Position numbers and translations under genes: made by a program
The notes under the pieces: model-generated
What the model saw: only the letters and a program-made list of their open reading frames with translations
What the model was told of the DNA's origin: nothing
Databases searched by the model: none
Part shown: positions 24,460 to 37,964 of the stretch, in pieces
How positions within the stretch are numbered: position 1 is the first letter of the stretch
Layout: the number at the start of each line of letters is the position of its first letter
NCBI GenBank assembly: GCA_964423265.1
Contig: CAYREF010000002.1
Span: forward strand, 16,704-80,703
Source of the DNA: an uncultured Actinomycetota bacterium
Lineage (GTDB): Bacteria > Actinomycetota > Humimicrobiia > Humimicrobiales > Humimicrobiaceae
Direction of reading: 5' to 3'
Length of the DNA: 64,000 bases

Positions 24460-25326
24460 TTAATCCCCTGTTTTTGCCTTAAAAACATCTGCTGCATGAT
24501 AAGAAGACCTTACAAATATTCCCGAAAAAACATATTTAAAACCTATTTGTTTTGCCATATCTTCTATTTTTTTGAATTCTTCCGGCCGGTAATATTTTTT
24601 TACCCCGGTATTTTTTTTACCGGGCCTCAGATATTGTCCAATGGTTAAAATATCACAACAGTTATCTTTTAGGTCTAGCAACAGCTTTTTAATGTCCTGT
24701 GTGCCTTCTCCAAGACCAACCATAAATCCTGATTTCGTATATATATTTTTTTTGTAACTTTTAGCATAATTTAAAATTTTTAAAGAATTATAGTAATTAG
24801 CTTGGGGCCTAACCTTTAAGTAATTATCAGCTATTGTTTCAATATTATGGTTTAATACTTCCAAGTCACAATCAAGTATTGTTTCTAGATGTTTGACCGA
24901 GCCCTTTAAGTCTGGAATAAGGCATTCAATCCTGGAGCTTGGATTCATTTCTTTTATTTCTCTGATAGTCTCAGCAAAATGCCCGGCACCCCCGTCTTTT
25001 AGGTCATCCCTGGTAACAGAGGTTAACACTACATAATTTAGCCCCATTTTTTTTACAGCTTGGGCCACTTTTTTAGGCTCTTCCTTGTCTAGCGGCTGAG
25101 GCTTTCCCGAAGTTACCCCGCAGAATGCACAATTTCTTGTACATATATTCCCCATTAGCATAAAGGTAGCAGTCTTTTTGCTAAAGCATTCATAAATATT
25201 TGGGCACTGTGCACTTTGGCATACGGTATGCAGCCTAGAATCTGTTATTAATTTTTTAACCCTTGAAACATTTATATTATCAAAGCTAAACTTCTTCTTT
25301 ACCCACGCCGGTCTTCTATTCAACAA
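24460..25326 (-). CDS. lipA: Lipoyl synthase
   Basis: Auxiliary-cluster motif CQSAQCPNIYEC (Cx4Cx5C) and radical-SAM motif CTRNCAFC. Confidence 0.85.
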   Translation of the reverse strand: MLNRRPAWVKKKFSFDNINVSRVKKLITDSRLHTVCQSAQCPNIYECFSKKTATFMLMGNICTRNCAFCGVTSGKPQPLDKEEPKKVAQAVKKMGLNYVVLTSVTRDDLKDGGAGHFAETIREIKEMNPSSRIECLIPDLKGSVKHLETILDCDLEVLNHNIETIADNYLKVRPQANYYNSLKILNYAKSYKKNIYTKSGFMVGLGEGTQDIKKLLLDLKDNCCDILTIGQYLRPGKKNTGVKKYYRPEEFKKIEDMAKQIGFKYVFSGIFVRSSYHAADVFKAKTGD

Positions 25327-26173
25327 TTTTTTTAAATATCCTCTCCAAATCTTTTATGCTACTAAAATTTATAGTCATTTTCCCTTTATTTTTGTTTATC
25401 CTAATGTTTACAGGAGCATTTAGGTAATCTGAGACCTTTTCTGATATTTTTGGTATCTTGCTAAATTGCAATACCTTACCTCTTTTTTTAGAAGATTTTT
25501 TTTCCAGCATCTTGTTAACTAGATTTTCAACATCCCTCACAGTCAGGCTTTTTGTCATTATCTGGTTAGCCAATTTCATTTGCCCTTTTTTATCTTCTAG
25601 GGTCAGTAATGCCCTTGCATGGCCAGCACTTATTTTGCGCGTGTCCACAAGTTTTTGTAATTCTACCGGCAAAGAAAGAAGACGGATAGAATTGGTTATG
25701 GCTGTCCTACTTTTCCCTACTCTTTTTGCCAATTCTTCATGGGTTACCTTAAATTCATCAATTAGCTGCTTGTAAGTAAAAGCTAACTCCATAGGGCTTA
25801 AATTATCCCGGTGGATATTCTCTATTAATGCCATTTCAACAGATACCGTATCATCAATATCTTCTGCAATAATGCCGGGGATGGTTCTCAACCCAGCAAT
25901 TCTTGAAGCCCTCACCCTTCTTTCTCCAGCCACAATTTCATATTTATTACCATTTTCCCTAACAATTATGGGCTGTATTACTCCAAACTCTTTAATAGAA
26001 TCCGCTAGTTCCCGTAATGAATTCTCATCAAAGTTTTTCCTGGGTTGATTTCTGTTAGCTTCTACGTCATCTAAGGGAATTTCAAGGACCCTATTTTTAG
26101 TATCTTTTTTCTCTTCTTTTGAAGATGGGATTAAGGCATTAAGCCCCTTACCCAAGCCTCTTCTGGCCATCAT
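25316..26173 (-). CDS. parB: Chromosome partitioning protein ParB/Spo0J
   Basis: GLGKGLNALIP N-terminal box, the ParB box region, and an HTH. Confidence 0.85.
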   Translation of the reverse strand: MMARRGLGKGLNALIPSSKEEKKDTKNRVLEIPLDDVEANRNQPRKNFDENSLRELADSIKEFGVIQPIIVRENGNKYEIVAGERRVRASRIAGLRTIPGIIAEDIDDTVSVEMALIENIHRDNLSPMELAFTYKQLIDEFKVTHEELAKRVGKSRTAITNSIRLLSLPVELQKLVDTRKISAGHARALLTLEDKKGQMKLANQIMTKSLTVRDVENLVNKMLEKKSSKKRGKVLQFSKIPKISEKVSDYLNAPVNIRINKNKGKMTINFSSIKDLERIFKKIVE

Positions 26174-26990
26174 TTATCACTTCCTTTGTCAAATTTTTAT
26201 ATGCAATTGCCCCTTTACAATTTTTATCATAAAGCATTATGGGTTTTCCATAACTGGGGGCTTCACTTAATCTAACATTCCTGGGGATTATTGTATTGTA
26301 GACTTTTTCTGAAAAATAATTTCTAACTTCTTCTATTACTTCATCAGATAACCTAATTCTTGAGTCATACATAGTCATAATCGCACCAGCAATTTTAAGG
26401 TCTTCGTTTAAATTTTCCTTTACTAAATTTATTGTATTTATAAGTTGGCCTAAACCTTCTAATGCATAGTACTCACATTGTATAGGTATTATTACTTCTT
26501 TGGCTGCAGCAAGGGCATTAATTGTTAGCAACCCTAACGCAGGAGGGCAGTCTATTATTATAAACTGATAATCATTCTCTATTTTTTTTATTGCTTCCTT
26601 CAGCCTATATTCCCTTTTCATGCTTGAAACCATTTCTACTTCAGCTCCAGCTAATTCTATTGAAGAAGGAAGCAGTCTTAAGTTTTTAAATTCTGTATCA
26701 ACAATTGCTTTGCCTATTTCTTCCTGTTTTAGTATAACATCATAGGTTGAGTTGTTGATATCTTTACTGTCTATACCTACCCCGCTTGTTGAATTACTTT
26801 GTGGGTCCAAATCTACCAGAAGTGTTTTAAAACCTTCTAAGCCCAGATATGCTGCAAGGTTTACAGCAGTGGTGCTTTTTCCCACTCCCCCTTTTTGATT
26901 TGCAATAGCAATTACCCTCGGTTCCCCTTTTTTTGGCACAGGTTTTTGATTGAGGTCATCACTTTTAAAAACTTTTCTTAAAAAACCCAT
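26148..26990 (-). CDS. parA: Chromosome partitioning ATPase ParA/Soj
   Basis: Deviant Walker A motif KGGVGKSTTAVNLAAYL. The N-terminal approximately 25 aa of the ORF track may be read-through upstream of the true start. Confidence 0.85.
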   Translation of the reverse strand: MGFLRKVFKSDDLNQKPVPKKGEPRVIAIANQKGGVGKSTTAVNLAAYLGLEGFKTLLVDLDPQSNSTSGVGIDSKDINNSTYDVILKQEEIGKAIVDTEFKNLRLLPSSIELAGAEVEMVSSMKREYRLKEAIKKIENDYQFIIIDCPPALGLLTINALAAAKEVIIPIQCEYYALEGLGQLINTINLVKENLNEDLKIAGAIMTMYDSRIRLSDEVIEEVRNYFSEKVYNTIIPRNVRLSEAPSYGKPIMLYDKNCKGAIAYKNLTKEVINDGQKRLG

Positions 26991-27002
26991 TTACACAATT
27001 AC

Positions 27003-27746
27003 CTATTTATATAAATCATCTTTTTTAATCCTAGAGAAGTTCCGGGGAAATTTATCTGGGGTATTTTTTACTTTATCTATTTCCAAAAGAACCCTAACCT
27101 CATTTAGGCAAGGAACCTTTACTTCTAAAATATCTCCTGTTTTCCCTCCCAATATGCTTATTTCCTCATTATACTTTTTTATTTCATCAAAAACTTTTTT
27201 GCTTTTATAAAATATAATTTTACCACTTATTTTACAAAATGGAATTGCTAATTCTATTAAAATCAGGAATTTGGTTACAGCCCTTGCTATTACCAAGTCA
27301 AATTGCTCCCTTTTTTTTATTTCTCTGCTTGCGTTCTCAGCCCTTTTCCTTACAACAATAATATTCTCTAGGCTAAGTTTACTAATAGAATCATTTAGAA
27401 ATTTTACTTTTTTTAAAGATTTTTCCAGTAGGTAAAATTTTTTACCGGGAAAAAATATAGCCAGGACCAACCCCGGTAATCCTGCACCTGTTCCAATATC
27501 TATAATCCTCTCAGAAGGGTAAATTAATCTGTCGGCATGCTTTAACAAAGATAATGAATCTAATATATGCCTTATAAATATTTGGTCCTTCTCTTTTGTC
27601 CCTACAAGATTTATGCTTTTATTGTAAGAATACAAGAAGTCTAGGTATAGTAATATTTTTTCTATATATTCTTTTTTATAGGATACATTATTTTCTTTAA
27701 TAAACTCTATTAGTTGATCTCTCAAGCTTGAAGTAGTTTTACTCAT
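27003..27746 (-). CDS. rsmG: 16S rRNA (guanine527-N7)-methyltransferase RsmG (GidB)
   Basis: SAM-binding motif DIGTGAGLPGLVLAI and the conserved position between gidA and parA. Confidence 0.8.
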   Translation of the reverse strand: MSKTTSSLRDQLIEFIKENNVSYKKEYIEKILLYLDFLYSYNKSINLVGTKEKDQIFIRHILDSLSLLKHADRLIYPSERIIDIGTGAGLPGLVLAIFFPGKKFYLLEKSLKKVKFLNDSISKLSLENIIVVRKRAENASREIKKREQFDLVIARAVTKFLILIELAIPFCKISGKIIFYKSKKVFDEIKKYNEEISILGGKTGDILEVKVPCLNEVRVLLEIDKVKNTPDKFPRNFSRIKKDDLYK

Positions 27747-29578
27747 TTTCTTAAATTTAACATCAATATTGAAATATCAACTGGCGAGATGCCAGCAATT
27801 CTTGAAGCTTGTCCCAGGGTGTTAGGCTTCTTTGAAGTGAGCTTTTCCTGTGCTTCATAAGTTAAGCCCTTTATATCAAAATAGTTAATGTCATTAGGTA
27901 ATTTATAATTTTCTATACCCTTCAGCTTTTTAATTTCAGACAACTGCCTATTTATATAACCTTCGTACTTAATCATTATTTCCACTTGCCTTAATATATC
28001 CCTATCAAAACCATTATTCAATAAATCAATAAATTCCTTTAAGCTGTGTATGCTAACCTCTGGCCTTTTTAGAAGCTTATAAGCGCTAACCGTTCTTCTA
28101 AGATCTGTTTCTAAAAGCGAATCTTTTTCAGGCTTAACCATTTCTTTTTTTAATTTATTTAGTAGAAAATCAATTTTTTCATTCTTCCTAATTATAGATT
28201 GATACTGGCTCTGGTTTAGTAGGCCAATCCTCTTACTGTATGCTGCCAATCTAAGATCCGCATTATCCGGCCTGAGGATTAACCTGTATTCTGCCCTCGA
28301 AGTATACATCCGGTAAGGCTCCATCAGGTCTTTTGTTACTAGATCATCTATTAAAACTCCTATATAGCTTGTATCCCTGGTAAAAATCAGGGGCTCCTTT
28401 TTTAAAATTTTTAAAGCAGCATTAACTCCTGCTAAAAACCCCTGTGCAGCAGCTTCCTCATAACCTGATGTGCCATTTATCTGTCCTGCAAAATAAAGAT
28501 TTTCAATTAATTTAGATTCGAGGGTATAATTGAGCTGGCTTGGTATTATATAATCATATTCTACAGCATATCCAGGCCTTATAATCTTGGCTCCTTCTAA
28601 CCCTTCTACGGAATTTACGATTTTCTGCTGTATATCGAAAGGCATACTGGTAGTAAGCCCCTGCAAATACATTTCGTTTGTAAATTTTCCTTCAGGCTCT
28701 ATAAAAATAGGGTGCTTCTTTTTATTTGGAAAGTTTATTACCTTCCTGTCAATTGAAGGGCAATGCCTGGGTCCATGCGTGTCAACCATTCCTGACCTGA
28801 TAGGGGAATATTTTATATTTTTTGCAATAATATCATGAGTTTTACTATTGGTATAAGTTAAATAACTGGGAATACTGTCATTAGAGATATCTGCCCCTTT
28901 TGACCAAAAAGAAAAATGCCTACCGTTACATTCTGCCTCATTTATTGAATTTTTTGTAAAATTAACGGTCCTTCTGTCTATCCGGGGTGGCGTAGCAGTT
29001 TGGAATCTATCCACCTCAAACCCTAAATCATTTAAACTTTTAGTTAATTGCATAGCAGGATACTCGCCCATTCTTCCTGCTGGATAGTCTTTTTCTCCTA
29101 TTATTATTCGTCCCCTCAGGAAGGTTCCTGATGTTACAATCACAACCCTACTTCTAAAAACAAGGCCACTTTCAGTTTGCACCCCTGAAGCTTTATTACC
29201 TTTCACCAGCAATTTTGAAACAGTTCCTTCTTTGAGAGTTAAAAACCTGGTGTTTTCTAAAACTTTTTTCATTTCTATTTCATATTCTTTCTTATCTATT
29301 TGAGCTCTCAATGCTTGTACTGCTGGTCCTTTTTTCTTATTTAATATTTTAAACTGAATTGATGTTTTATCTGCAGATTTAGCAATTTGTCCGCCCATAG
29401 CATCAACTTCCCTTACCAATTGAGTTTTCCCCACCCCGCCAATTGCAGGATTACAGGGCATTAGTGCTATCTTGTCCATGTTTATGGTCAAAGCTAATGT
29501 TTTTAATTTTAACCTTGCACAGGCCAGTGCAGCTTCACAACCTGCATGGCCAGCCCCTATTACTATTACATCATACAT
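27743..29578 (-). CDS. mnmG: tRNA uridine 5-carboxymethylaminomethyl modification enzyme MnmG (GidA)
   Basis: MYDVIVIGAGHAGCEAALACAR FAD-binding N-terminus, 611 aa, with full-length GidA architecture. Confidence 0.85.
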   Translation of the reverse strand: MYDVIVIGAGHAGCEAALACARLKLKTLALTINMDKIALMPCNPAIGGVGKTQLVREVDAMGGQIAKSADKTSIQFKILNKKKGPAVQALRAQIDKKEYEIEMKKVLENTRFLTLKEGTVSKLLVKGNKASGVQTESGLVFRSRVVIVTSGTFLRGRIIIGEKDYPAGRMGEYPAMQLTKSLNDLGFEVDRFQTATPPRIDRRTVNFTKNSINEAECNGRHFSFWSKGADISNDSIPSYLTYTNSKTHDIIAKNIKYSPIRSGMVDTHGPRHCPSIDRKVINFPNKKKHPIFIEPEGKFTNEMYLQGLTTSMPFDIQQKIVNSVEGLEGAKIIRPGYAVEYDYIIPSQLNYTLESKLIENLYFAGQINGTSGYEEAAAQGFLAGVNAALKILKKEPLIFTRDTSYIGVLIDDLVTKDLMEPYRMYTSRAEYRLILRPDNADLRLAAYSKRIGLLNQSQYQSIIRKNEKIDFLLNKLKKEMVKPEKDSLLETDLRRTVSAYKLLKRPEVSIHSLKEFIDLLNNGFDRDILRQVEIMIKYEGYINRQLSEIKKLKGIENYKLPNDINYFDIKGLTYEAQEKLTSKKPNTLGQASRIAGISPVDISILMLNLRK

Positions 29579-29584
29579 ATTTTT

Positions 29585-31366
29585 TTACTCCATTGTTTCA
29601 CGTGAAACATTTTTAATATAACACAATAGGGAAAAAATATCCGCTAAGCTTACCCCTTCTATTCTTTTAGCTTGCTCTAGCGTTTGTGGCTTCTTATTAT
29701 TTAAGCTTTTAGTAGCTTCATTTGACAAATTATGTATATCTGAGTAACAAATGTCATCAGGGATTTTTACATCCATATTTTTTGTTATAGTTCTTATTTT
29801 TTTTTCTTCTCTCTTTATGTAATCTTCATATTTTAATTTAATAACTACACTCTCCGCTTCTTCTTCGGACAAATTATATTTTGATGAAATATAGTTCAAA
29901 TCATTATCGCTCAACATATTCTTTTTAATCTTATTATAAAAAGGGGTAAATTTTAGCTTACCTTTTACTATTTCTATATTTTTATATTTTTTTAATATCT
30001 TTTCCTGCTTCTGGCTAAGGCCCATAGCAGGCAAAAATTTAGCCATCCTGTAATCAACATTATCATGCCTATGATGAAGCCTAAACTCATTTCTGGATGT
30101 TAACATCCTATATGGTTCTGTAATTCCTTTTACAACCAAGTCATCTATCAACACCCCTATATAACCATCTTCCCTTTTTATAACAATTCCCTCTTCTCCC
30201 TGGGATCTCCTTGCTGCATTTATACCTCCTACTATTCCTTGGGCAGCTGCTTCATCATAACCAGTAGTTCCGTTAATCTGCCCAGCAAAGAACAACCCGC
30301 TGTGGCTTTTGCTCTCTAATGTATTATTTATCTGAAAAGATTTCAAATAATCATACTCAACTCCATATCCATGCCTAGTAATTATTGCATCTTTTGTACC
30401 TTTTATCCGCTTTAATATTCCGTATTGTATATCTTCTGGAAGAGTGGTCATCAGGCCATGTAAATACATTTCATTGGTTTCCAGTCCTTCTGGCTGTATA
30501 AATATGAGGTGTCTCGCCCTTTCCGGAAATCTCATAACTTTCTCTTCTATTGAAGGGCAATATTTAGGACCTTCCTTTTTTTCTTTTTTCCCGTAAAATG
30601 CTGACTTTCTAATATTCTTTTTTATATAGTTTATACATTTTTTTTCCGCATAGGTTATATAATTTTCTACTTGTTTTCTTTTACCTCTTTTGCTCTCATA
30701 GGAAAATAACTTAGGTTTTTTGTCATATTCTTGAACCTTTAACTCTTTTAAATTGAGGGTTTTTTTATCAACTCGGGGCGGTGTATCTGTTTTCAACTTG
30801 CTAAATCTATAGCCAGCCTCCTCAAGGCTTTCTACTAAGCTTATAGAGCTTATTTCTCCTTTTCGACCTGCCTCCAGCCTATTTTTCCCCCAAAAAATCT
30901 CTCCCCGGAGGAATGTACCAGTGCATATAACCAGACATTTTGCCTTATACCTAAATTTATCACTAGTTTGAATAGTAAATCTATTTTTACCTATTATTAT
31001 TTTTTTAGCCAAACCTTGCTTTAAATCAAGGTTATTTTCATTTTCTAAGACATATTTCATGTTTAGAAAATACCTTTTCTTGTCTACGATTGCCCTTAGT
31101 GTTTGGACAGCAGGTCCTTTTGAAACATTTAACATCCTCATATGTATGTAGTTTCTATCGGTGTTTTTAGATATTTCTCCTCCCAATACGTCAATTTCCC
31201 TTATAAGCTGCCCCCTACCAGGTCCTCCTATAGCACTATTACAAGGCATGCTGGCTACACTATCCATATTTATTGTTATTATTAGTGTCTTTACTCCTTG
31301 TCTTGCAGCTGCTAAGCCTGCTTCACAGCCTGCATGGCCAGCTCCTATTACTATTACATCATACAT
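29585..31366 (-). CDS. Second MnmG/GidA-family paralog (593 aa), tandem with mnmG
   Basis: Same N-terminus MYDVIVIGAGHAGCEAGLAAAR and GidA-like motifs throughout, but divergent C-terminal sequence. It is not the short TrmFO type. Confidence 0.75.
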   Translation of the reverse strand: MYDVIVIGAGHAGCEAGLAAARQGVKTLIITINMDSVASMPCNSAIGGPGRGQLIREIDVLGGEISKNTDRNYIHMRMLNVSKGPAVQTLRAIVDKKRYFLNMKYVLENENNLDLKQGLAKKIIIGKNRFTIQTSDKFRYKAKCLVICTGTFLRGEIFWGKNRLEAGRKGEISSISLVESLEEAGYRFSKLKTDTPPRVDKKTLNLKELKVQEYDKKPKLFSYESKRGKRKQVENYITYAEKKCINYIKKNIRKSAFYGKKEKKEGPKYCPSIEEKVMRFPERARHLIFIQPEGLETNEMYLHGLMTTLPEDIQYGILKRIKGTKDAIITRHGYGVEYDYLKSFQINNTLESKSHSGLFFAGQINGTTGYDEAAAQGIVGGINAARRSQGEEGIVIKREDGYIGVLIDDLVVKGITEPYRMLTSRNEFRLHHRHDNVDYRMAKFLPAMGLSQKQEKILKKYKNIEIVKGKLKFTPFYNKIKKNMLSDNDLNYISSKYNLSEEEAESVVIKLKYEDYIKREEKKIRTITKNMDVKIPDDICYSDIHNLSNEATKSLNNKKPQTLEQAKRIEGVSLADIFSLLCYIKNVSRETME

Positions 31367-31432
31367 AATTTAAACCTCAATGTTTCACGTGAAACATTTC
31401 GCCAAATTTTCTAATAATATTATTTTTTGTCA

Positions 31433-32857
31433 TTATTTGCCTATGCAAAACTTACTGAAAATCTGGTCTAACATGTCTTCCCTTGCAGTATCTCCGGTAA
31501 TTTCGCCTAATAAATTTTTAGCAATTTTTAAGTCTGCTGAAGGGAATTCTTCCGACATCTTATCCTCCATTGCTAATTTAGCCTTATTAAGCAACTCTTC
31601 TGCATCCTTTAATAATTTTTTATGTCTATTGTTTATAATTATCTTTTCCTCTATATTTAACTCTTCTCCATCTAATACTATTTCTTTAATTCTGTTCTCC
31701 ATTTTTTCTATTCCAATCCTTTTAGTTGCTGATATTTTTATTACTTTATTTTCACCTAAATATTTTTTTATCTCCCCTTCGTCTAACCTTGCTTTCAAGT
31801 CTACTTTATTGATTGCAATTATTGATTTTTTTCCCTTAATTTTTTGAATTATTTCCTTATCTATGTCTTCTAGCCTTTTGCTAATGTCCATTACACATAT
31901 TACAAGCTCTGCTTCATCTATATGCGTGAGGCTTCTTTCAACCCCTATCTTTTCAATTTTATTCTTAGTCTTCCTAATCCCGGCAGTATCAATTAATATA
32001 AGGGGGATTCCCTTTACATATAGTATTTCTTCAACCGCGTCCCTCGTGGTTCCTGGAATAGGAGTTACTATTGCTTTTTCCTTTCTTGAAAGCAAATTTA
32101 GTAAACTTGACTTTCCGACATTTGGCTTCCCAATAATTGCAACTTTTACTCCGTTTTTTACTATTTCCCCTTTTCCCTCATCTTCAATTAATCTAGACAT
32201 TTCCCACCTTATATCTTGGACATCTTCGGTCAATTTATCATATGGGGTAAGCTCTAAATCTTCTTCTATAAAATCAACTGAGGCTTCTAGCTGAATAAGC
32301 ACATCTGTGATTTTTGAAGCTATTTTTTTTATTTTCCTCTTCACATCTCCTTTTACGTTTTTTGCTGCTATTTTTAAACTTTCTTCTGTTTTTGACCTGA
32401 TTATGTCAATTACAGCTTCCGCTTGTGATAAATCTATTCGTCCATTTAAAAATGCCCTTTTGGTAAACTCCCCAGGCTCTGCTATTCTTGCTCCATTTTC
32501 TATACATAGTTGAAGTATTTTAGATGTAGGTATAATTCCCCCATGGGAATTGATCTCAACTATGTCTTCTCTAGTATAGGAGTTTGGCTCTTTCATATAT
32601 GATACTATTACTTCATCTATTGCATTTCCTTTGTTATCTGTTATATATCCGTAAGTCATTGAAAATGTTTTTAACCACCCTATTTTCCGGTTATTTTTAC
32701 TCTTAAATATCTTATCCACAATTGCTGCAGCTTTACTACCGCTTAGCTTTACTATACCGATAGCCGCCTCACCAGGCCTTGTGCCTATTGCCACTATTGT
32801 ATCTTTATTTATGTTTAGCATTTTTATAGTAATTATTTTTTTTATATTTTTTGCCAC
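31433..32857 (-). CDS. mnmE: tRNA modification GTPase MnmE (TrmE)
   Basis: G-domain motifs GKPNVGKSSLLN and DTAG, with the C-terminal CIGK tetrapeptide. Confidence 0.9.
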   Translation of the reverse strand: MAKNIKKIITIKMLNINKDTIVAIGTRPGEAAIGIVKLSGSKAAAIVDKIFKSKNNRKIGWLKTFSMTYGYITDNKGNAIDEVIVSYMKEPNSYTREDIVEINSHGGIIPTSKILQLCIENGARIAEPGEFTKRAFLNGRIDLSQAEAVIDIIRSKTEESLKIAAKNVKGDVKRKIKKIASKITDVLIQLEASVDFIEEDLELTPYDKLTEDVQDIRWEMSRLIEDEGKGEIVKNGVKVAIIGKPNVGKSSLLNLLSRKEKAIVTPIPGTTRDAVEEILYVKGIPLILIDTAGIRKTKNKIEKIGVERSLTHIDEAELVICVMDISKRLEDIDKEIIQKIKGKKSIIAINKVDLKARLDEGEIKKYLGENKVIKISATKRIGIEKMENRIKEIVLDGEELNIEEKIIINNRHKKLLKDAEELLNKAKLAMEDKMSEEFPSADLKIAKNLLGEITGDTAREDMLDQIFSKFCIGK

Positions 32858-33205
32858 CTACTATAAGCTTTCAAAACCAAATTATAGTGTGACCTAAAGA
32901 TAACAATAAGAATAAAGCTAATTAAAAAATGTTTCAAGATTAAGCATTTTTCTTTAACAAGCATATTATTATACCATAGTATTTATGCATATTATTATTA
33001 GTATTGTCCCGGGGTTTACAGTTTCTAAATAACTTATTTCTATGATCTCAGGTACTCTTATTTTTTAGTGTTATGGAAGTGGTTTTAAAATATTCTAATA
33101 TCTTGCTTAATTTCTTTTTATAAAATTTTTTGATTTAATTTGTTAAGCGGTGAGGGGGTAATTATTTTTATAATTTACGGTTTTACCCTAAACGGTCCAA
33201 GAAAA

Positions 33206-33240
33206 AAAGGGCGCTACATAGCGCCCTTTTTATCCCTATT
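33206..33240. terminator. Bidirectional rho-independent terminator downstream of jag
   Basis: AAAAAAAGGGCGCTACATAGCGCCCTTTTT forms a GC hairpin flanked by an A-run and a T-run. Confidence 0.6.
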
Positions 33241-35765: not shown

Positions 35766-36605
35766 ATGTTACTGTTTGAAATGGTACAGGAATCATCAAA
35801 TCCAAATCTCAGCTCTGAAAATAAAAGCAATTCTAATACTTCTATACCAGTAAGGATTGCTATTTATGACAATATGCGAAGCATACCCAGGGTAGAGGAA
35901 TACCGTTACGGTAATGTAGCAGACTTTATTAACGAAACCTCACAAAAAACTTATAGCCTTTCCCACGGGATTGGTGGAAAGATTCCCTATACTATAATAA
36001 AAGAGCTGATTGAAAACCTGATACATGCTAATTTTAATGAAATAATTATAACTATCTTAGATAATGGCAATCATATTATTATCTCAGATCAGGGCCCTGG
36101 CATTGACGATAAAAACAAGTCTTTTCTCCCTGGTTACACCTCAGCTACCCAAAGCATGAAGGAATATATAAGGGGGGTTGGTTCAGGGCTCCCTATAGTC
36201 AAAGAAACCATTACTTTTTCTGGAGGCTCCATAAATATTTCAGACAATATTAACTCTGGTACCGTGGTCTCCCTTAGAATAGATACTGCGCAAACCTCAC
36301 CCGGCGATGATGAAGAACCTAAGCCTGCCACTAAGGCAGAAAGCCCGAAAGCAGATGAAAGCTATGAAGAGATATATGATCTTAAACTTTCTGATAGACA
36401 GATAAAAATTATGTCCCTGATATTGGAATTAGAAAACGCGGGTCCTTCAATAATCTCGAATGAGCTTGGCTTCAGCCTTTCTACTTCATACAGGGAACTT
36501 ATTTATCTTGAAAATAAAGGATTTTTAACTTCAAGCAACTCTGGCAAGAGAGCTTTAACCCAAAAAGGCATAAAATATCTTGAATATTATTCGAATAATT
36601 TTTAA
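35766..36605 (+). CDS. GHKL (Bergerat-fold, anti-sigma/His-kinase-like) ATPase domain fused to C-terminal winged-helix DNA-binding domain
   Basis: N-box ELIENLIHAN, G1 box ISDQGPGID, G2 box GVGSGLPIVKE, G3 box SGTVVSLRI, then a wHTH-like segment IMSLILELENAGPSIISNELGFSLSTSYRELIYLENKGFLT. There is no HisKA/DHp domain. Confidence 0.6.
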   Translation: MLLFEMVQESSNPNLSSENKSNSNTSIPVRIAIYDNMRSIPRVEEYRYGNVADFINETSQKTYSLSHGIGGKIPYTIIKELIENLIHANFNEIIITILDNGNHIIISDQGPGIDDKNKSFLPGYTSATQSMKEYIRGVGSGLPIVKETITFSGGSINISDNINSGTVVSLRIDTAQTSPGDDEEPKPATKAESPKADESYEEIYDLKLSDRQIKIMSLILELENAGPSIISNELGFSLSTSYRELIYLENKGFLTSSNSGKRALTQKGIKYLEYYSNNF

Positions 36606-36614
36606 TATTATGAC

Positions 36615-37964
36615 ATGAACAATTTAAATGATTCTTGGGATTTAATTCTAAAAGACATAAAGAGCAGCATTAATACGCCTACCTACAAAACCTGGTTCGA
36701 ACATATTGCCCCTGTTTCTTTAAAAAAAAACTGCTTAACATTGTCTGTAAATAGCGACTTTGCCAAAGAATGGCTCGAAACAAGATATTACAATATTTTA
36801 AATGACTCAGTTAAAAAAAATATCAACCAGGATTGTGAGTTAAAAATAACAGTTGATCCTAGCAACCACAATAGCCACAAAAATAAAGAGCCTGAAACTA
36901 TAGTGGAATCTCAGAAACCTAAAAAAAATTCCAGGGCTGGCCAGTCAATGTTTAATTCCAAATATACCTTTGACACTTTTGTTATCGGCAGCGGTAACCG
37001 GTTTTCCCATGCAGCAGCCCTTGCCGTAAGCGAAAATCCAGGCAAGGCTTACAATCCCCTGTTTATATACGGGGGAGTAGGACTTGGTAAAACCCACCTG
37101 CTTCATGCTATTGGCCAATACATAGGGCAGCTTTACCCAGACATGACTGTAAAATATGTATCTGCAGAAAAGTTTTTAAATGATTTTATTAATGCATTAA
37201 GAGATAAGACAGTTCTTTCATTTAAAGAATATTATAGAAATACAGATGTCCTTCTGGTTGATGATATCCAGTTTTTGGAGGAAAAGGATGCCAGCCAGGA
37301 AGAGTTTTTTCACACTTTTAATACCCTCCATGATACTAACAGACAGATAGTGCTTTCCAGTGATAGAAAGCCCAAAGACATATCCACTCTTGAGGAGAGG
37401 CTTAGGTCCCGTTTTGAGTGGGGCTTAGTTACAGATATCCAGCCTCCCAATTTCGAAACCAGGTTTGCCATCCTTAAAAAATATTCTGAAAGGGAAAAAA
37501 TAATAGTTTCAGACGATATTTTAAATCTTATTGCCAATAGGATTACTTCAAACATAAGAGAGCTTGAAGGGGCGTTAACCAGGATTGTGGCTTTTGCTTC
37601 CTTAACCAGATCTAAACCTGATTTAGGAATAGCTAAAAATGTATTAAAAGATATTCTTCCTGAAGAGGGTGAGCAAAAAATCAACGTGCAGAAAATAATT
37701 AAAGAAGTTTCAAAATATTTTTCCATCCCTATTAGCACCATAGTTGGAAGCAAAAGGAGTAAATTTGTTTCCCATGCAAGACAGATTGCTATGTACCTTT
37801 CCCGGGAGCTAACCAATAACTCCCTGCCAAAAATAGGAAATTATTTTGGCAACAGGGATCATACCACTGTTATTTATGCTGTTTCTAAAATAGCCGATCT
37901 TTTAAATACTGACCAGAGTGTCTACAACCAGATACAGGAAATTACCAATAATTTAAAAAAGTAG
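36615..37964 (+). CDS. dnaA: Chromosomal replication initiator protein DnaA
   Basis: AAA+ Walker A GGVGLGKTHLLHAIG, Walker B LLVDDIQFL, and C-terminal DNA-binding domain (HTTVIYAVSKI). Confidence 0.95.
   Translation: MNNLNDSWDLILKDIKSSINTPTYKTWFEHIAPVSLKKNCLTLSVNSDFAKEWLETRYYNILNDSVKKNINQDCELKITVDPSNHNSHKNKEPETIVESQKPKKNSRAGQSMFNSKYTFDTFVIGSGNRFSHAAALAVSENPGKAYNPLFIYGGVGLGKTHLLHAIGQYIGQLYPDMTVKYVSAEKFLNDFINALRDKTVLSFKEYYRNTDVLLVDDIQFLEEKDASQEEFFHTFNTLHDTNRQIVLSSDRKPKDISTLEERLRSRFEWGLVTDIQPPNFETRFAILKKYSEREKIIVSDDILNLIANRITSNIRELEGALTRIVAFASLTRSKPDLGIAKNVLKDILPEEGEQKINVQKIIKEVSKYFSIPISTIVGSKRSKFVSHARQIAMYLSRELTNNSLPKIGNYFGNRDHTTVIYAVSKIADLLNTDQSVYNQIQEITNNLKK

Follow-up and report, generated by a model that had tools for sequence, protein, structure and literature searches.

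Gene content of the region

The 64-kb stretch of DNA analysed here (the window) carries a tandem pair of GidA/MnmG genes, both full-length and intact. They had been recognized in a first-pass annotation made from the letters of the sequence, and the open reading frames, the Pfam domains and the cut-off of the NCBIfam MnmG equivalog model TIGR00136 all agree with this. The gene order is rpmH-rnpA-yidD-yidC-jag, then mnmE-(parS)-mnmG2-(parS)-mnmG1-rsmG-parA-parB, where parS stands for the two palindromes discussed below. From mnmE to parB all genes lie on the same strand, with spacers of 0-66 nt. The features used in this paper are:

25316..26173, minus strand: parB/spo0J, with Pfam ParB_N, HTH_ParB and ParB_C; predicted binder of both palindromes
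26148..26990, minus strand: parA/soj, with Pfam AAA_31/CbiA/ParA; Walker-type partition ATPase (KGGVGKS)
27003..27746, minus strand: rsmG (gidB), with Pfam GidB; 16S rRNA methyltransferase
27743-29578, minus strand: mnmG copy 1 (G1), 611 aa, with Pfam GIDA, GIDA_C_1st and SAM_GIDA_C; slow-evolving canonical MnmG
29585-31366, minus strand: mnmG copy 2 (G2), 593 aa, with Pfam GIDA and SAM_GIDA_C; diverged, active site intact, tail coded by the predicted parS
29594..29609, no strand: predicted parS site B, perfect 16-bp palindrome, exact match, overlapping the last codons (VSRET) of mnmG copy 2
31381..31396, no strand: predicted parS site A, perfect 16-bp palindrome in the 66-nt spacer between mnmE and copy 2
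31433..32857, minus strand: mnmE, with Pfam TrmE_N, MnmE_helical and MMR_HSR1; single GTPase partner with a C-terminal FCIGK motif
33209..33226, no strand: GC-rich hairpin between A and T runs, read in the sequence just after jag; resembles a bidirectional intrinsic terminator
36615..37964, plus strand: dnaA, with Pfam DnaA_N, Bac_DnaA and Bac_DnaA_C; marker of the replication-origin region

A string search of the window finds the exact 16-mer TGTTTCACGTGAAACA at 29594-29609 and 31381-31396, and no third match in the 64 kb even at up to three mismatches (shuffled sequence yields an expectation of 0.00 matches at up to two mismatches and 0.21 at up to three). Because no further copy is present at this tolerance, no regulon can be defined within the 64 kb. 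Site B is located 15 nt 5′ of the ATG of copy 1 and site A 14 nt 5′ of the ATG of copy 2, with Shine-Dalgarno sequences (GGAG and GAGG) between palindrome and start codon, just as first described. The earlier observation that one palindrome falls inside the last codons of copy 2 also holds: site B lies within the open reading frame of copy 2, 6 nt ahead of the gene junction in this tightly packed same-strand array, and codes for its ...N-VSRET-ME tail before the stop.

The palindromes match parS and a cognate ParB is encoded nearby

The chromosomal parS consensus is TGTTNCACGTGAAACA (PMC7022226). Both palindromes show 0 mismatches to TGTTNCACGTGAAACA, with N being T, which is the fully palindromic form. 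The parS of Hyphomonas neptunium is listed with the identical 16-bp sequence.

The parB gene belongs to the packed same-strand array that holds the palindromes, at a distance of 3.4 kb from site B and with parA adjoining. Its product contains the CTP-binding motif GERRxRA, passes the cut-off of the NCBIfam model TIGR00180 and has chromosomal ParB/Spo0J proteins as its best PDB matches. The recognition region, GKSR-TAITN-S-IRLL-S...SAGHAR, places R173, S179, S184 and G201 (Caulobacter numbering, assigned by the motif register GKSR...N...GHAR) at the specificity positions. Among parS binders R173 is invariant and G201 preferred, while Noc proteins have Q-K-K-R at the same four positions (PMC7383237). 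The Noc model gives the top NCBIfam bit score for this ParB because ParB and Noc are closely related. An assignment of the protein to Noc and of its site to NBS was nevertheless rejected, as the score of 241.5 bits stays below the cut-off of 315 and the four residues are R/S/S/G and not Q/K/K/R. This is the single ParB-family gene and it directly follows parA, and the DNA site is parS and not NBS, all of which sets the system apart from Noc, the ParB paralog of Firmicutes.

The surroundings are those of a replication origin. Genes dnaA and dnaN are found at 36.6-39.4 kb, the cumulative GC-skew has its minimum at 36-38 kb, and the two palindromes are 5.2 and 7.0 kb away from the dnaA start. Thus a consensus match, a cognate ParB together with ParA, an origin-proximal location and, as shown in the next section, conservation whatever the coding context come together at these sites. 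We are therefore highly confident, on sequence grounds, that both palindromes are chromosomal parS, the predicted loading sites of the ParB encoded a few kb off in the same array, and we infer that this ParB binds both of them.

If the system works like characterised ParABS systems, its ParB dimers would recognise the 16-bp palindrome through their helix-turn-helix, then bind CTP, close to a sliding clamp and spread across the origin-proximal DNA. The resulting ParB-DNA complex would be moved by ParA and recruit SMC. That the sites adjoin mnmG start codons would then follow from their place within the origin-proximal cluster.

In several respects the region resembles the chromosomal ParABS systems of Bacillus subtilis (Spo0J), Caulobacter (ParB) and Hyphomonas neptunium: the identical 16-bp palindrome is present, the sites form a small origin-proximal cluster near parAB, and the ParB of the window has the N-terminal CTPase, the HTH and the C-terminal dimerisation domain as well as residues of the R173/G201 type. 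In B. subtilis a parS lies inside the spo0J coding sequence, and site B is likewise embedded in a coding sequence, that of G2. Unlike in those systems, the sites of the window are neither in nor after parB: they lie 3.4-5.2 kb upstream of it, one on each side of an mnmG paralog. There are only two sites within the 64 kb examined, and their binding by ParB is a prediction. The sites themselves are textbook parS, unusual only in bracketing an old lineage-specific second mnmG.

Conservation of the sites in related loci and in outgroups

Nine related loci were compared, with 7-18 kb available per relative and G2 identities down to 46%. Each locus has exactly two perfect parS sites (18/18), with site B in the same place in 9 of 9 loci, although synonymous sites are saturated among these loci and the flanking bases have diverged. 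The majority fraction is 1.00 within parS and 0.52-0.65 across the 25-nt flanks. The distance from parS to the start codon is 14-59 nt, with the exception of L007, where it amounts to 2.6 kb because an IS element has inserted between site A and G2; site A still adjoins mnmE in this locus. The variable spacing and the IS insertion indicate that the exact geometry of parS and gene is not constrained. In addition, the C-terminus of 71/72 full-length G2 clusters reads VSRET, VSRGT or MFHVKH, each a tail coded by parS, and truncated G2 genes without the entire C-terminal domain still terminate at parS.

Three outgroup loci were inspected for a parS 5′ of a single mnmG (L009 does not represent an origin context). 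In the Firmicutes Anaerobranca and Desulfallas, which have a single mnmG, the identical 16-mer occurs 54 nt and 1 nt after parB, respectively, and their mnmE-mnmG spacers contain no 16-mer.

These data bear on the reading given first, in which the palindrome acts in cis as a dedicated control element shared by both mnmG genes, be it as the operator of a CACGTG-binding protein or as an mRNA hairpin. The position of both palindromes directly 5′ of the GGAG and GAGG sequences, 14-15 nt before the start codons, speaks for it, as does the presence of one site ahead of each mnmG copy in all related loci. Moreover, the leader of copy 2 folds better than its shuffles (z = -2.4), and a few weak 9/12 promoter-like matches are found at 31406-31461, just 5′ of site A. 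On the other hand, the sequence is identical to parS with a cognate ParB encoded, the spacing to the ATG varies up to the 2.6 kb of L007, and in the outgroups the 16-mer follows parB, away from mnmG. Site B is even part of the G2 coding sequence, 6 nt from the junction, in an array with spacers of 0-66 nt. The isolated RNA hairpin reaches only -3.9 kcal/mol and the leader of copy 1 gives z = -0.4. Promoter-like matches in the AT-rich window number 48 against 41.7 +/- 6.6 in shuffles; being at background level, they make the promoter scan uninformative on internal promoters. We therefore regard this co-regulatory element as very improbable, and the data do not support an operator or mRNA hairpin specific to mnmG. 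A structured cis-regulatory RNA was rejected as the main explanation: the hairpin is weak, the leader signal is inconsistent between the copies, the position is not fixed, and a permissive Rfam scan finds no family match at either palindrome.

ParB-parS complexes change local transcription in some bacteria. The sites could thus be parS whose loading with ParB has also been selected as a roadblock or silencing device, tying expression of mnmE-mnmG-rsmG-parAB to the state of segregation or replication. They are internal to the array that holds parAB and keep their placement throughout the lineage, which would fit such a role, but nothing in the sequence demands it, the spacing is variable with an IS insertion in L007, so that the geometry is unconstrained, and the outgroups have parS elsewhere. 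We consider such selection unlikely. A secondary regulatory effect of ParB may exist, the sites being just 5′ of ribosome-binding sites. With the palindromes being parS, the universal bacterial centromere, no new regulon is to be inferred from them.

The second MnmG

MnmG (GidA) is the FAD/NADH subunit of the MnmE-MnmG complex, which makes cmnm5U34/nm5U34 in tRNA. G1 and G2 both begin with MYDVIVIGAGHAGCEA and are 44% identical over their full length. Both exceed the cut-off of TIGR00136 (524.85 bits), G1 with 795.8 and G2 with 669.9 bits. Identity to outgroup MnmGs is 52% for G1 and 44% for G2. G1 has a dN/dS of 0.085; G2 is the faster-evolving copy and is under purifying selection as well. 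The view that G2 is a distinct paralog is borne out by this rate and by the tree, in which G2 branches inside MnmG as sister of G1.

That G2 might carry disabling substitutions, in its FAD motif or at the catalytic cysteines, had been named as a possible objection; the alignments reveal none. The FAD motif GxGxxG is present as VIVIGAGHAGCEA within a PF01134 match of 1.4e-135 over residues 3-392, and G8, G10 and G13 are invariant in the alignment (A2). C42 (MPCNSAIGG) and C270 (GPKYCPSIEEK) align to C47 and C277 of E. coli and are both invariant in a 48-sequence alignment. In E. coli MnmG these two are the catalytic cysteines (PMC12397908).

The region of contact with MnmE, for which a comparison had been proposed, is also kept. 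SAM_GIDA_C matches at 528-581, and K512-D532 and S573-N586 align to the MnmE-contact helices K547-N567 and T608-Q622 of E. coli; the structure model predicts helices at 514-529 and 574-592 with a pLDDT of ~90. A clade-specific deletion of ~20 residues follows residue 477 of G2 and falls in the early part of the helical domain; Pfam finds no PF21680 match in this protein. Eleven clade-specific substitutions in otherwise conserved motifs come in addition (e.g. PCNP->PCNS, FIEPEG->FIQPEG, SRAEYR->SRNEFR). In Foldseek the model has a TMq of 0.84 to 2ZXH and 0.83 to 9HIP chain C (TM range 0.82-0.84). G2 thus shares the FAD motif, both cysteines, the MnmG-specific motif 1, the MnmE-contact helices and the full fold with the MnmGs of E. 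coli, Aquifex aeolicus and Chlorobium tepidum, and differs from them as a second copy beside a canonical MnmG, 44% identical to it, with the ~20-residue deletion and the parS-coded tail. It is a selectively maintained MnmG paralog and probably still dependent on MnmE.

A different tRNA-modifying enzyme had been considered as well. TrmFO (Gid) is a small GidA-family folate/FAD tRNA m5U54 methyltransferase of ~440 aa with two domains and shares its superfamily with G2. However, G2 reaches 60.7 bits where the TrmFO model requires 428.65, matches the TrmFO fold with a TM of only 0.35 and consists of 593 aa with a C-terminal helical domain, so a TrmFO identity was rejected in favour of MnmG. In Humimicrobia-type relatives G2 is without Cys1 and without the whole C-terminal domain. 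The truncated G2 proteins of relatives (449-484 aa) superficially resemble the architecture of TrmFO, both being without the C-terminal helical domain.

Since G2 is distinct and evolves faster, neofunctionalisation, suggested early on, is a fair hypothesis. It is possible, though less likely than not, that G2 is a neofunctionalised MnmG subfamily rather than a redundant isozyme, confined to a deep uncultured Actinomycetota lineage. G2 would then form a heterodimer with G1 in the MnmE-MnmG complex, or a complex of its own with MnmE acting on a different tRNA set or amine substrate. On this reading the Humimicrobia-type G2 would be a Cys-less pseudo-enzyme without the C-terminal domain that is still under purifying selection, and its retention would imply a non-catalytic role as scaffold, regulator or tRNA binder. 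The two parS around G2 would mark the original duplication unit if it is true.

Duplication history

In a tree with 11 outgroups, G1 and G2 each form a monophyletic group, the two groups are sisters, and the branching within one mirrors that within the other (200/200 bootstraps). The pair is real and old: mnmG was duplicated once, at the root of an uncultured Actinomycetota lineage to which Humimicrobiia-type MAGs belong. As the most parsimonious history, inferred by parsimony and not by observation, a unit of parS plus mnmG would have been tandemly duplicated once in the ancestor of this lineage, which would have left one parS before each copy. The upstream copy G2 reads through into the second parS, which is why it has the VSRET tail.

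In the window the two copies share ~88% identity over ~82 nt, counted from parS to codon 16, and their DNA diverges beyond. A 45-nt motif is identical at 42/45 positions between the copies of the window against a background of 34.8 +/- 2.7. The same comparison gives 41/45 in L001 and mildly raised values of 38 in L004 and L005, and no raised identity in L003 and L006-L008, where parS is perfect. Concerted evolution of the 5′ ends as a general feature of the paralogs was therefore rejected, and the raised identity reflects at most a lineage-specific short conversion tract.

The same similarity over parS and the first 16 codons, together with the 45-nt value, could be taken to mean that the palindromes have no function and simply persist, as leftovers of the duplication or as a short dispersed repeat. 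This appears hardly credible: all 18 sites are perfect where synonymous sites are saturated and flanks have diverged, the loci without extended 5′ similarity have perfect parS all the same, and a dispersed repeat would be represented by just two copies in 64 kb.

Annotation of parS, MnmG and the array

The main value of the analysis is corrective, in that an apparent new operator very probably is parS; the remaining interest lies in the conserved second MnmG. The two sites, within 7 kb of dnaA, would place the centromere in a low-GC lineage of uncultured Actinomycetota, which is useful for annotating origin and segregation functions in these MAGs. Reading parS in different frames also explains the recurrent VSRET/MFHVKH tails and spurious ORFs such as 31380-31847. 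The public annotation names both copies simply MnmG, and the literature searched gave no description of tandem MnmG paralogs. Judged from its sequences, the mnmG paralog subfamily thus seems modestly new, the parS sites being of an already known kind. The series from intact G2 to the Cys-less truncated G2 of one sublineage serves as a natural test of which MnmG parts are dispensable while the gene is retained.

Two details concern the array itself. The true start of mnmE is probably the internal ATG at 32821, giving 462 aa as in the relatives (460-462 aa). The hairpin at 33209-33226 suggests that the array from mnmE to parB is a separate transcription unit. It is absent from the output of the promoter/terminator scan, and sub-threshold Rfam sRNA matches fall there, consistent with a terminator-like hairpin.

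Predicted parS sites at the two mnmG genes

The two mnmG genes, termed G1 (611 aa) and G2 (593 aa), lie head-to-tail on the minus strand and share the start MYDVIVIGAGHAGCEA. The palindrome TGTTTCACGTGAAACA is found at 29594-29609, at the G2/G1 junction 15 nt 5' of G1, and at 31381-31396, in the spacer between mnmE and G2, 14 nt 5' of the latter. These are the only matches in the 64-kb window even with three mismatches, the expectation from shuffled sequences being 0.00 at up to two and 0.21 at up to three mismatches. The first-pass annotation, which had described two palindromes at two head-to-tail mnmG genes, is therefore correct in all of these elements and their positions.

The palindrome matches the chromosomal parS consensus TGTTNCACGTGAAACA in its fully symmetric form. 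This consensus is in use from Firmicutes to Actinobacteria and Proteobacteria (PMC7022226), and a Hyphomonas parS is listed with the identical sequence. Directly after a ParA, the ORF at 25316-26173 encodes a protein with ParB_N, HTH_ParB and ParB_C domains, the closest structural relatives of which are chromosomal ParB/Spo0J proteins. Specificity for parS or for NBS, the site bound by the ParB paralog Noc, is set by four positions, which are R173, T179, A184 and G201 in the ParB of Caulobacter, whereas Noc has Q, K, K and R; among parS binders R173 is invariant and G is the preferred residue at 201 (Jalal et al., PMC7383237). The register GKSR-x4-N...G-H-A-R gives R173, S179, S184 and G201 for the ParB of the window, a set which we read as parS type. 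Its identity as Noc was rejected, as the NCBIfam Noc model scores 241.5 against a cut-off of 315. Judged from sequence, the two palindromes are a textbook parS pair and predicted ParB sites; directly seen are the canonical parS sequence, a cognate ParB, the proximity to the origin and the strict conservation of the element.

Following established ParABS biology (PMC7022226, PMC7053999), ParB dimers would nucleate at both sites and bind CTP, then slide and spread along the ori-proximal DNA, and the resulting partition complex would serve ParA and SMC.

The site at 29594-29609 codes for VSRET in the G2 tail (...NVSRETME, stop). A 155-aa ORF (31380-31847, plus strand) which begins with MFHVKHF and runs antisense to mnmE is spurious, namely parS (ATG-TTT-CAC-GTG-AAA-CA) read from the opposite strand. 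Both peptides, VSRET and MFHVKH, are parS signatures at gene ends.

Gene array at the replication origin

The window is the replication-origin region, with dnaA and dnaN as markers and the minimum of the cumulative GC skew at 36-38 kb.

Features of the origin region and of related loci (L004, L005, L007)
24460-25326, minus strand: radical-SAM, lipoyl-synthase-like gene, 11-nt overlap with the parB stop
27743-29578, minus strand: G1
29585-31366, minus strand: G2
33209-33226: hairpin GGGCGCT-ACAT-AGCGCCC directly past the jag/khpB stop, with A7 and T5 runs at its flanks
35766-36605, plus strand: 279-aa ORF, sole Pfam match HATPase_c, stop 10 nt 5' of dnaA
36615-37964: dnaA
38244-39350: dnaN
L007 4731-5914: IS element (rve integrase and HTH_Tnp_1) between the intact upstream site and G2
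L004 5523-6956 and L005 5511-6860: truncated G2 (449-484 aa)

On the minus strand the conserved order is rpmH-(rnpA, yidD)-yidC-jag, followed by mnmE-G2-G1-rsmG-parA-parB, with successive spacings of +66, +6, -4, +12, -26 and -11 nt from mnmE onward. The hairpin at 33209-33226, not listed by the consensus promoter/terminator scan, looks like a bidirectional intrinsic terminator between the rpmH-jag and mnmE-parB units; the DNA between it and the likely mnmE start (32822-33208, about 380 nt) is non-coding. Because of the tight mnmE-parB spacings and this terminator-like hairpin after jag, the palindromes appear to be internal to one transcription unit and outside classical promoter regions. The radical-SAM gene is found at the same position in L001 and L003-L007 and appears to belong to the mnmE-parB array.

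Conservation of the sites and the question of mnmG control

Eight further loci with G2 relatives were compared, three from genomes (L001-L003) and five obtained by exact-protein look-up (L004-L008). In every locus examined the gene array is the same and the perfect 16-mer occurs exactly twice, first between mnmE and G2 and again at the G2/G1 junction. In the nine loci all 16 bp are invariant, whereas the 25-nt flanks reach a majority fraction of only 0.52-0.65; synonymous sites are saturated between most of these genomes. Among 72 clusters of full-length G2 proteins the C-terminus is VSRET in 66, VSRGT in two and MFHVKH in three, the last being the same parS DNA in another frame. Even where G2 is short and its whole C-terminal domain is gone, as in Humimicrobia-type genomes, the gene still ends at parS. 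In two single-mnmG Firmicutes loci (Anaerobranca and Desulfallas) the mnmE-mnmG spacer has no 16-mer; the identical 16-mer lies 3' of parB, at 54 and 1 nt, respectively. From its placement in related and Firmicutes loci, the element tracks par system and origin rather than mnmG.

The palindrome had first been taken for an operator or mRNA hairpin governing both mnmG paralogs, a view which the parS identity, the variable spacing to the start codons and the weak folding do not support. The sites lie 14 to 56 nt before the start codon of G2 and 14 to 59 nt before that of G1, and in L007 the IS element puts 2.6 kb between the upstream site and G2, this site still lying 38 nt past mnmE. Such changing geometry is an argument against an element dedicated to mnmG control. 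Folded as RNA, the palindrome yields a 6-bp hairpin only (-3.9 kcal/mol), and compared with shuffled sequence the leader of G1 folds no better (z = -0.4) and that of G2 moderately better (z = -2.4). An Rfam scan gave no family match at either site, and in a consensus scan promoter-like matches in the window were no commoner than background. ParB bound at the two sites may affect transcription of the array to some extent, but nothing requires such an effect.

The mnmG pair

Both proteins pass the MnmG equivalog cut-off of 524.85 bits (G1 795.8, G2 669.9), and a full-length comparison of the two gives 44% identity; TrmFO identity was rejected, since both score far under its threshold. The closest relatives of G2 form about 80 clusters at 53-71% identity, most of which come from uncultured "Actinomycetota" MAGs and all of which lack a match to PF21680 (GIDA_C_1st); ordinary Firmicutes MnmGs come next, at about 45%. 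Relatives of G1 are very numerous at 67-71%, with Candidatus Humimicrobia and Hydromicrobia among the names they carry. In a neighbour-joining tree (585 columns, 200 bootstraps) G1 forms one clade and G2 another, the two being sisters relative to 11 outgroups, limited to the best non-clade matches, and their internal branching is mirrored, which indicates a single duplication in the common ancestor and co-divergence thereafter. The tandem duplication is real; it is ancient and specific to this lineage, and no description of it was found in the searched literature. We do not see a new kind of system in the pair, which is a modest curiosity of interest to specialists in tRNA modification.

The most parsimonious history would be a single tandem duplication of a "parS + mnmG" unit; this would explain the site before each copy, and the upstream copy, G2, would later have been read through into the second parS site. 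A stretch of about 82 nt, which runs from parS up to and including codon 16 (29531-29612 and 31319-31399), is ~88% identical between the copies, and in the FAD-motif DNA 42 of 45 nt agree against a background of 34.8 +/- 2.7. This excess 5' similarity, found in the window and L001 only and weak in L004/L005, may be a recent short gene-conversion tract.

G2 evolves faster than G1, as seen from the identity of orthologs to the window (46-59% versus 62-73%) and to outgroup MnmGs (44% versus 52%). Despite this, purifying selection acts on it: dN/dS is 0.14 versus 0.085 for G1 in the closest pair and 0.11 versus 0.076 in L007/L008. Disabling substitutions of the catalytic cysteines were looked for, and both residues are kept: C42 and C270 align with E. 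coli C47 and C277 and are invariant in an alignment of 48 sequences. The helices contacting MnmE in a 2025 cryo-EM structure (K547-N567 and T608-Q622; PMC12397908) have counterparts in K512-D532 and S573-N586. The AlphaFold model (pLDDT 89.8, pTM 0.90) has a complete MnmG fold; it matches A. aeolicus GidA with a TMq of 0.84, MnmE-bound E. coli MnmG with 0.83 and TrmFO with 0.35. Three features mark the G2 clade. About 20 residues are missing after position 477, early in the helical domain; eleven clade-specific substitutions fall within otherwise conserved motifs (e.g. PCNP to PCNS, FIEPEG to FIQPEG, SRAEYR to SRNEFR); and the parS-coded tail lengthens the last, MnmE-contacting helix. With catalytic and MnmE-contact features intact, our best guess for G2 is a putative MnmE-dependent enzyme; it could act as heterodimer partner of G1 or have an altered specificity.

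The truncated G2 forms, found in Humimicrobia-type genomes (L004, L005), belong to abundant clusters (P0084 with 80 and P0098 with 46 members). They lack the C-terminal MnmE-binding domain and have the first Cys changed to Tyr, and in L005 the second Cys is missing too. The reading frame nevertheless stays open, dN/dS is about 0.15, a value obtained at saturated dS, and the gene is not obviously a pseudogene.

The HATPase_c gene at dnaA

The same HATPase_c gene also stands immediately 5' of dnaA in L001, L004, L005, L006 and L008, and is absent from this position in the two Firmicutes outgroup loci (L010/L011). An ATPase at the origin that is specific to the lineage and runs in the direction of dnaA could be an accessory factor of replication initiation. 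By eye, the last ~70 aa of the ORF at 35766-36605 resemble a winged helix-turn-helix.
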